Position numbers and translations under genes: made by a program. 64,000 nt of DNA. Source: an uncultured Thermotogaceae bacterium (GTDB lineage Bacteria > Thermotogota > Thermotogae > MWEM01). Below are positions 17,803-21,353 of the stretch, piece by piece (positions within the stretch are counted from its first letter, which is position 1; each line of letters opens with the position of its first letter). The DNA lies in the NCBI GenBank assembly GCA_964580185.1, contig CAZOJQ010000002.1, forward strand, positions 52,599-116,598, in the 5' to 3' direction. Below the pieces are notes generated by a model. The model worked only from the letters and a program-made list of their open reading frames with translations. It was not told where the DNA came from and ran no database searches.

Positions 17803-19242
17803 TTAAAAGGTTCCCACGATAAAGGCGTCTGTAATGTGATTGCCTTGAACAGTCTGAACACCGGGAAAAGCCCAGTCTAACACCTTGTCTCGGGCATAAT
17901 GGTACAACTCCGGATAGGTCAACTTCTGATCCGCATTTCCCATTGGTCCATATCCGTCTGCGTTGTGTGTCGCGTCGAAAGCGCCCATTGGATTGTTTGA
18001 ACCCGTATGGCCCATTCCGTCAGTCAGAAAGAAGCTCATGTACCCGTGTTTCAACACATCATCTTCGTAAGCGCTTTCCGTAACGGAGGCTCCCGTCAAC
18101 ACATAGAATTCGTAGGTGGAGCCAAACGCGCCTCTCTTCTCAGGATCCTCCGCAAAAGCCGCAATGACCGCCTCGTTGAATCGAACTGCCCGATCCAATC
18201 GATCTTGGCCGGATCCATCCGGGGTAAGATTCGCGAAATACCCCGATTCGCAAGCATCGATGATTACAAGCTTTGTTCCCTGGATCTTTCCCAATTCGGT
18301 TCGCAAGTCGTTCACGCTGATTTCCCCCGAAGGCAAATAGATATACGAAGTAATCCCATTGTGATACCCATGCCCAGAGTAGTGGAAGACAAAGAAGTCC
18401 TCCGCTTGACTGCCCGGGATATACTCATTCAACCAGCCAATCACATCGGAACGTGACATCGACCCTGTCCGCGTCTGTACGTCGAAAGATTCCGCCAGGT
18501 TGGAAAAAACCACTCGAATCCGTTCGGAATCACGCGCCGCTCCCGGGAGATCACCGGTCCCACCATAATCCGAAGCGCCAATAGACAACGCCCGGAAAGA
18601 TCCAAGGGGAATAAGGGCGAAGTGGGCCGTCAGAGTCACAGGATGAGCAGGCATCGGATACGAATAAGCGGCAACAGCGCTGATCAGTTCTCCGTTTTCG
18701 GCCCAATGGGAAAATTGATATCCTTCTTGGGGAACGGCATCAATAGGTACAACCGCGCCTGCGGGGTATGACCCAGCTCCAAAAACCGCGCCCCCTGCCA
18801 AAGGCTGCGCTTGCAGCTGAAGAAGGTACAGGATGGGAACGAATCGGGCCCGAATCGTGCGAGATGCAATCGCTGGGAAATTTAAGGGATTTGAAGCGCT
18901 GACTTTTGTCGTTCCTTCATACCACCCTTCGAACTGATAGCCTTCATAGGCCTGCGCTTCCAGGGAGATATAGGTACCCACAAACACTGTTTTGCTTTGA
19001 GATTGATCGGTCCACAATCCTCCATCGATCCGAACCTCTCCCCCATATAGAGCGTTTCGTGAATGGGCTTCTTCCAATGGCATGACACTGACGGTTATGG
19101 TAACCTGCAAGGGTGTTGGCCCAGGCGAAATTCCGCCGCACGCTGTCATCAAAAAAATGCTGGCAATCAAAATCCCCACCATGCAAAGAACGCAGATTCT
19201 TCTTTTCACCAGATCCCTCCTTATGCGTATGTGGATCTTCAT
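17803..19242 (-). CDS. Lipoprotein with two Listeria-Bacteroides (InlB B-repeat-like) domains and a C-terminal caspase-like peptidase C14 (clan CD) domain
   Basis: Signal peptide with lipobox-like LMTAC. GYQFEGWYEG and GYQFSHWAENG hallmark motifs of PF09479-type repeats. Caspase His/Cys dyad context FHYSGHG ... LVIIDACESG. Confidence 0.65.
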   Translation of the reverse strand: MKIHIRIRRDLVKRRICVLCMVGILIASIFLMTACGGISPGPTPLQVTITVSVMPLEEAHSRNALYGGEVRIDGGLWTDQSQSKTVFVGTYISLEAQAYEGYQFEGWYEGTTKVSASNPLNFPAIASRTIRARFVPILYLLQLQAQPLAGGAVFGAGSYPAGAVVPIDAVPQEGYQFSHWAENGELISAVAAYSYPMPAHPVTLTAHFALIPLGSFRALSIGASDYGGTGDLPGAARDSERIRVVFSNLAESFDVQTRTGSMSRSDVIGWLNEYIPGSQAEDFFVFHYSGHGYHNGITSYIYLPSGEISVNDLRTELGKIQGTKLVIIDACESGYFANLTPDGSGQDRLDRAVRFNEAVIAAFAEDPEKRGAFGSTYEFYVLTGASVTESAYEDDVLKHGYMSFFLTDGMGHTGSNNPMGAFDATHNADGYGPMGNADQKLTYPELYHYARDKVLDWAFPGVQTVQGNHITDAFIVGTF

Positions 19243-19267: not shown

Positions 19268-20728
19268 TTATTGCAGGCGGGCTTCGCTCAAGGGGATCCC
19301 CAAAGCCTCAGCCACTCCTTTTCCGTATGCGGGGTCGGCCTTGAAACAGTTTTGGATGTGCCGGATCTTGATCATCCGTGGCGCGTCGCCCATATTCCGA
19401 GCGGTGTTCTCAAACAACGCCTGTTTTTGCTCCGGGTTCATCAAGTTGAACAAGGCCCGAGGTTGGGAGTAATAGTCATCATCCTCACGGTGGTTCCAAT
19501 GGCCTGCGTCCCCCTCCAAACCAAGGGTTGGTTCAGAGAAGCCGGGTTGTTCTTCCCATTCTCCATAACTGTTTGGTTCATAACCGATTCTACTTCCGTG
19601 ATTCCCATCCACACGCATTTGCCCGTCTCGGTGATAGCTATGGACTGGACAACGAGGCGCGTTGACAGGGATCAGATGATGATTGACTCCAAGGCGGTAT
19701 CGCTGCGCGTCTCCATAGGAGAACAAACGCCCCTGAAGCATCTTGTCCGGCGAGAATCCGATGCCCGGCACAATGCTCGCCGGATTGAAGGCAGCTTGTT
19801 CCACATCGGCGAAGTAATTTTCGGGGTTTTTGTTCAACTCTAAGATTCCCACATCGATCAGGGGAAAATCCGCATGTGGCCATACCTTTGTAAGGTCAAA
19901 CGGATTGTAAGGGACTTTTGCTGCTTCTTGTTCCATCATGACTTGGATCGACATCTTCCATCGAGGATAATCGCCCTTTTCGATGGCCTCGAACAAATCC
20001 CGTTGGTGGCTTTCGCGATCCTTGGCGATGATGGCTTCTGCTTCCTGATCGGTCAGATTCTTGATCCCTTGTTGGGTATGAAGGTGAAACTTGACCCAAT
20101 GCCGCTCGTTGGCGCTGTTGATCATGCTGAACGTATGGCTGCCATACCCGTTCATGTGCCGATACGAATAGGGGATTCCGCGATCGCTCATGGTAATGGT
20201 CACCTGATGCAACGCTTCGGGAAGAGATGTCCAGAAATCCCAATTGTTTTTTGCGCTGCGCATATTCGTTTTCGGGTCTCTTTTTACAGCATGATTGAGA
20301 TCGGGAAACTTGAGGGGATCGCGGAGGAAGAAGACCGGGGTATTGTTTCCTACCAAATCCCAATTTCCTTCTTCCGTATAGAATTTGATCGCAAACCCAC
20401 GAATATCCCGCTCTGCGTCTGCCGCGCCGCGTTCACCCGCTACAGTGGAAAAGCGAACAAACACATCCGTTTTTTTCTCTACTTCGGAAAAGATCTTTGC
20501 CTTGGTAAATCGGGTAATATCGTGGGTCACGGTGAAGGTGCCGAACGCCCCCGATCCCTTTGCGTGCATTCGGCGTTCTGGAATTACTTCCCGATCAAAA
20601 TGCGCCAATTTTTCTAGATACCATACATCCTGCAACAACATCGGTCCTCGTTTGCCGGCAGTCATAATATTTTGATTGTCCGGTACAGGGGCTCCGTTGG
20701 TACGGGTTAACTTTTTCTTCTTATCCAT
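19268..20728 (-). CDS. katA: Heme catalase (monofunctional, clade 3-like)
   Basis: 486 aa. Catalase signatures (RERIPERVVHAKG-like HAKGSGAFG, and FDRERIPERVVHA equivalent [12 protein letters not shown]). Confidence 0.95.
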
Positions 20729-20882: not shown

Positions 20883-21353
20883 TTAAAGCACCCACCCTTC
20901 GGAATCCGGGAAGAGCGGTTTATGAACAAAGAGAAGATAGATCCCCATCCCAATAGCCCCCGAGACCACAAAGGCATCGGCAAAGTTGAAGATGGCGAAA
21001 TTTCCGATATGGATAAAGTCCACGACCGCCCCTCGAAAGAATCGATCGATCAAGTTGCCTACCGCTCCTCCGATGATGGCTCCGAACGAGAATCGGAGGA
21101 ACCAGGAGAAATCAGCGTATTTCCATGCAAGAACAGCCATACCGACGCTTATGATCAATACCGCTGGCAAGAGCTGATCCCCTTTTCCCTGGAGCATCCC
21201 GAAAACGATCCCTTCATTTTCATAATGGGTAAACCGGAACCATGAGCCAATAATCGGAATACTCTTGTATAAAGGGATATACACAACAACGAGCCATTTT
21301 GTCAGTTGATCCAGTCCCACAACCAAGAAAAACCAACAAACGGTCTTCTTCAT
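20883..21353 (-). CDS. lspA: Lipoprotein signal peptidase II
   Basis: 156 aa, 4 TM. Conserved LspA motifs (GNLIDR, FNFADAFV). Confidence 0.85.
   Translation of the reverse strand: MKKTVCWFFLVVGLDQLTKWLVVVYIPLYKSIPIIGSWFRFTHYENEGIVFGMLQGKGDQLLPAVLIISVGMAVLAWKYADFSWFLRFSFGAIIGGAVGNLIDRFFRGAVVDFIHIGNFAIFNFADAFVVSGAIGMGIYLLFVHKPLFPDSEGWVL

Follow-up and report, generated by a model that had tools for sequence, protein, structure and literature searches.

What would a caspase-type protease do outside the bacterial cytoplasm? Work on the caspase homologs of bacteria has mostly dealt with functions in the cytoplasm, such as programmed cell death, the response to stress and anti-phage defence. The locus considered here lies in a 64,000-nucleotide stretch of DNA from an uncultured Thermotogaceae bacterium (the window) and encodes a protein in which a lipoprotein-type signal and two repeats precede a C-terminal caspase-type domain. 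Our reading, to which we assign a probability of roughly 0.8 from sequence and profile comparisons, is that the product would be an extracytoplasmic, lipid-anchored C14 cysteine endopeptidase on the metacaspase/orthocaspase side of the family.

The gene and all features of its product lie on the minus strand. The longest form in the list of open reading frames starts at an ATG at 19242 (17803..19242, 479 aa), and the likeliest coding sequence is 17803..19209, which has a GTG start and encodes 468 aa. An AAGGAGG Shine-Dalgarno sequence is located 5 nt upstream of the GTG at 19209, gene callers chose this same GTG for P0001, a database protein of 468 aa with the identical sequence, and an 85%-identical ortholog has this start as well; the GTG is likely the true start. 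Residues are numbered according to the 479-aa frame unless stated, the 468-aa form being obtained by subtracting 11. Comparison with the 85%-identical ortholog (locus L003) gave a dN/dS of 0.156, indicating purifying selection, and the same synteny surrounds exact or near copies of the gene on independent contigs, from which we conclude that the frame is a real gene rather than a chance one.

The initial annotation had proposed a C14 fold with an intact His/Cys dyad, and profile comparisons bear this out. Pfam Peptidase_C14 (PF00656) matches residues 217-364 (18151..18594), the p20-like catalytic part, with E 2.5e-11 and 44.1 bits (gathering score 21.4). When the single sequence was searched against the PDB, only noise was returned (beta-trefoil designs, and MCA2 at E 0.6); the search with the family profile was decisive, reaching metacaspase-4 at E 1.8e-17, with metacaspases, MALT1 and caspases as its matches. 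In the profile alignment, the ySGHG of the family falls column for column on the YSGHG of Arabidopsis metacaspase-4 (AtMC4) and its DaCeSG on the DSCHSGG. The aligned catalytic residues are His291 (18370..18372), within FHYSGHG (YSGHG = residues 288-292), and Cys331 (18250..18252), within IIDACESG (residues 327-334), and in the chain of 6w8r, metacaspase 4 with a C139A substitution, an Ala stands in the column of Cys331. No match to the legumain family C13 (PF01650) was found with Pfam at E<=1. From these alignments, the protein is predicted to be a caspase-family C14 cysteine protease, with an intact dyad.

Two acidic residues are predicted to form part of the S1 pocket. Asp238 (18529..18531) occupies the Asp position of the metacaspase 'CVND' motif (GCVNDV in AtMC4), and Asp329 (18256..18258), two residues ahead of the catalytic Cys331, aligns with the Asp of DSCHSGG; by motif position, they are taken to correspond to Asp95 and Asp211, respectively, of TbMCA2. 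The S1-pocket residues of metacaspases and their preference for a basic P1 residue have been described (PMC4357240), and the acidic pocket Asp residues are conserved in prokaryotic homologs (PMC6426788). Since both metacaspase S1-pocket acids are present, cleavage is predicted to take place most likely after Arg or Lys, not after Asp. The catalytic His and Cys and both pocket Asp residues (D34 and D125 of alignment A1) are invariant in the 29 domain sequences of that alignment, and the Gly residues flanking the dyad are likewise invariant across the clade. This bears on the idea that the protein might be a non-catalytic adhesin or binding protein with the caspase fold as a scaffold: Pfam describes B-repeats of the type seen here as typical of adhesins and of proteins at the surface, and pseudo-orthocaspases do exist in bacteria, but the known pseudo-variants have Tyr and Ser in place of the His and Cys (PMC6426788), and with every one of these positions invariant we find a pseudo-protease hardly credible.

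The Pfam C14 match ends at profile position 146 of 233, and the p10 part is not recognised by the profile. By the p10 sequence criterion of Klemencic et al. (2019), judged with the Pfam profile, the protein classes as an orthocaspase, and its predicted model has a structural p10 equivalent. An AlphaFold run on the single sequence was uninformative (mean pLDDT 33). In the AF2 model built from a 72-row alignment, the p20-like part has a pLDDT of ~90-98, and residues 365-479 (17806..18150), the C-terminal half of the C14 domain, comprise a linker helix and, after it, strands and helices of p10 type with which the caspase fold is complete; the model has the caspase/hemoglobinase alpha-beta-alpha fold, including the small-subunit strands. 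This C-terminal half also holds a conserved Arg370-Gly371 (in the region 18124-18141) and an expanded EF-hand-like loop, NADGYGPMGNADQKLTYPE (17908-17964). The canonical 12-residue EF-hand loop (PROSITE PS00018) has no match in the window protein itself, and it is matched at the aligned position in 42 of 107 relatives; in the subclade of the window protein, the loop is expanded, and of the pattern it keeps just the opening Asp and the closing Glu.

Export is predicted from the N-terminus, which we inspected by a PROSITE-like (PS51257-like) rule: a positive n-region, a hydrophobic h-region, and a lipobox [LVI..][ASTG..][AGS]C with its Cys ~15-35 residues from the start. The sequence MKRRICVLCMVGILIASIFLMTA, immediately followed by C, fits the criteria for a Sec/SPII lipoprotein. 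The signal peptide (19141..19209) has MKRR as its n-region and ICVLCMVGILIASIFLM as its h-region, and the lipobox L-M-T-A/C (LMTAC, residues 31-35; 19138-19152) ends in the Cys that is predicted to be lipid-modified and to become mature residue +1 (19138..19140; Cys35, or Cys24 in the 468-aa form), directly followed by Gly-Gly. The positive n-region, hydrophobic h-region and lipobox Cys are present with the ATG and the GTG start alike, and orthologs P0002, P0006 and P0011-13 share the same lipobox. Two genes upstream of the protease gene, and so within the same window, lies the lipoprotein maturation gene lspA (Peptidase_A8, 20883-21353, E 5.6e-34), and a BamA-like Omp85 gene is also found within the window. 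With an N-terminus that fits the rule, a conserved Cys and lspA close by, the lipoprotein signal originally proposed stands, and the protease would be lipidated at Cys24 (468-aa numbering). In the Thermotogota envelope, such a protein could just as well be tethered to the cytoplasmic membrane and point into the periplasm as be located at the cell surface; the 'surface-exposed' of the initial annotation goes beyond what the sequence tells.

Between the signal and the protease domain, the two Listeria-Bacteroides repeats of the initial annotation were recovered as two stretches matching Pfam Flg_new_2 (PF18998), at E 1.6e-21 and 76.5 bits (cut-off 23.6). These InlB-type B-repeat domains span approximately residues 47-135 (18838..19104) and 138-211 (18610..18831), the best stretch aligning residues 142-211 with profile positions 2-72 of 73. 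They align to each other and carry the motifs GYQFEGW (residues 101-107; 18922-18942) and GYQFSHW (residues 174-180; 18703-18723), respectively. Pfam Flg_new (PF09479) matches residues 86-117 with 31 bits (cut-off 27), and TIGR02543 matches residues 101-134 with 21.2 bits, its cut-off being 20.95. Only a few sequences in the alignment reach into this region, and for that reason the AF2 pLDDT is <50 over residues 25-199. Elsewhere in the window, no paralog of the C14 domain or of the repeat module was found.

The repeats also shape what a homology search returns. A word-indexed search with the whole protein gave just five matches because the repeats dominated it, and domain-only and profile searches were needed; related loci were sought with a six-sequence alignment as the query. 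For the C14 domain there are 712 cluster representatives (50% identity) at E<=1e-3. A lipobox is present in 18 of the 20 nearest representatives, and the next 130 mostly have ordinary signal-peptide-like N-termini. In relatives, the C14 domain is fused to fn3, PPC, cohesin, Ig-like, Y_Y_Y and LRR_5 modules, which are of typical extracellular types, and in Thermotogota MAGs the paralogs occur as tandem arrays. The initial annotation had called an exported, lipid-anchored caspase relative unusual, a view that does not survive this comparison: predicted export is the rule in the clade rather than an exception, and prokaryotic metacaspases predicted to be extracellular or to have an N-terminal TMH were described in 2012 (PMC3501461). 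The protein is modestly, not highly, unusual because it is part of a large and already visible group of exported bacterial caspase relatives. The same survey recorded Thermotogota as being without metacaspases among the finished genomes of 2011. A literature search for characterised exported or lipoprotein bacterial metacaspases, or for toga lipoprotein proteases, yielded the 2012 and 2019 surveys only; an apparent further match, PMC13041763, proved to be a methods reference.

The adjacency to catalase noted in the initial annotation is real at this locus: a catalase gene (19268..20728, minus strand; its identical counterpart in L001 matches Pfam Catalase) lies immediately upstream on the same strand, and no terminator-like site was found in the gap of 25-58 nt between the two genes, which may be co-transcribed. 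The synteny is kept in the 85% relative. These observations, together with the speculation that extracellular metacaspases act on the cell surface or on neighbouring cells (PMC3501461), would suit a stress, death or defence protease, of the kind proposed for many prokaryotic metacaspases, that is co-expressed with catalase in response to oxidative stress and whose targets are neighbouring cells or the envelope of its own cell. The linkage is restricted to the window's own lineage; none of the other Thermotogota paralog loci examined has it, and catalase and protease probably serve separate functions. Nor does the locus look like a defence system: the PADLOC caspase model scores 16.1 bits (E 0.0012), below threshold, the NCBIfam model for EACC1-associated caspases (NF047832) reaches 28.1 bits against a cut-off of 140, and NACHT, TIR, gasdermin and CRISPR genes are all missing from the gene's neighbourhood. 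We consider a stress or defence role very improbable. A horizontally acquired island was also considered and rejected, as the rise in G+C of the catalase-C14 pair (0.51-0.54 compared with ~0.48) is too slight.

The genes neighbouring the protease are housekeeping and transport genes, and around the paralogs no conserved partner, substrate or secretion-system gene was found. This leaves the suggestion of a sortase-like processing enzyme unsupported. A cell-surface transpeptidase or sorting enzyme, positioned at the envelope by its B-repeats and attaching or processing surface or toga proteins, would have analogues in clan CD (GPI transamidase, plant asparaginyl ligases and the sortase-like PorU). 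However, the profiles place the domain in C14 and not C13, its PDB matches are to metacaspases, MALT1 and caspases, substrate or secretion-system genes are missing as conserved neighbours, and the paralog arrays with their varied binding modules resemble a repertoire of hydrolases more; we therefore regard transpeptidation as very improbable.

An exported C14 endopeptidase of the kind we favour might operate as follows. The precursor would be exported by Sec, diacylated through Lgt and cleaved by LspA before Cys24 (468-aa numbering), so that the N-terminal Cys would tether the mature protein to a membrane. A short Pro/Gly linker and the two InlB-type B-repeat domains would serve as a stalk or binding module holding out the C-terminal caspase-fold domain, which would cleave peptide bonds by means of His291 and Cys331, most likely after Arg or Lys. 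Autoprocessing at the conserved Arg-Gly and the divergent Ca2+-type loop may tune its activity. It is in this conditional sense that we infer the P1 specificity, the regulation and the location of the protease (periplasmic face or cell surface). Most likely, the enzyme would degrade or process proteins of the envelope or outside the cell, either to release nutrient peptides or to mature toga or surface proteins.

The closest kin that can be named are the prokaryotic metacaspase-like proteases or orthocaspases (MEROPS C14B; for example Microcystis MaOC1 and Geobacter GSU0716, PDB 3BIJ). The window protein shares with them the p20 fold, the His-Cys dyad and the two conserved acidic pocket residues, and, as in proteins classed as orthocaspases, Pfam covers only its p20 part. 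Modular fusion to other domains is normal among prokaryotic metacaspases (PMC3501461). The window protein differs from orthocaspases in that its accessory domains are N-terminal InlB-type repeats and its C-terminal half has a clade-specific EF-hand-like loop. It also differs from those studied in its predicted export and lipid anchor; to our knowledge, the orthocaspases studied so far are all cytoplasmic, and no counter-example was found in our literature search. Eukaryotic metacaspases (AtMC4, 6W8S; AtMC9, 8A53; Yca1, 4F6P; TbMCA2, 4AF8) are only ~17-21% identical to the window protein, which has neither a type I prodomain nor a long type II linker and whose p10 region is too divergent for Pfam. 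Exported clan-CD proteases are otherwise known from other families: gingipains (C25), clostripain and the Bacteroides C11 enzymes, and bacterial legumains (C13).

A broader reading, which we put forward tentatively and think more doubtful than probable, is that there is an unrecognised and sizeable exported C14 clade, composed of lipoproteins of mesophilic Thermotogota and secreted proteins of Clostridia, whose members would be Ca2+-switched extracellular Arg/Lys endopeptidases in which the p10-like half has, on the side that binds substrate, an integral Ca2+ loop of EF-hand type. If this were true, family C14 would have given rise to its own functional analogues of gingipains, and the tandem arrays, in which the paralogs carry different binding modules, would constitute a surface proteolytic repertoire in a phylum previously thought to be without metacaspases. 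Whatever the standing of that idea, the gene offers a clean and intact example of the unstudied exported, membrane-tethered side of the family, a side that has many members in metagenomes and has expanded in Thermotogota of anaerobic and engineered habitats. Were activity and Arg/Lys specificity to be shown, it would provide a C14 counterpart to the extracellular clan-CD proteases gingipain, clostripain and legumain, and a simple monomeric model for regulation by a Ca2+ loop; this would extend known biology without changing a concept.

The N-terminal half can be compared with surface proteins made of InlB B-repeat/Flg_new_2 domains, with which the window protein shares its two Flg_new_2 domains. 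Its closest repeat-only relative, P0003, has eight such repeats, whereas in the window protein the repeats carry a protease. In P0190 the order is reversed, with C14 preceding Flg_new, which indicates that the combination of repeat and protease is modular rather than a fixed family.

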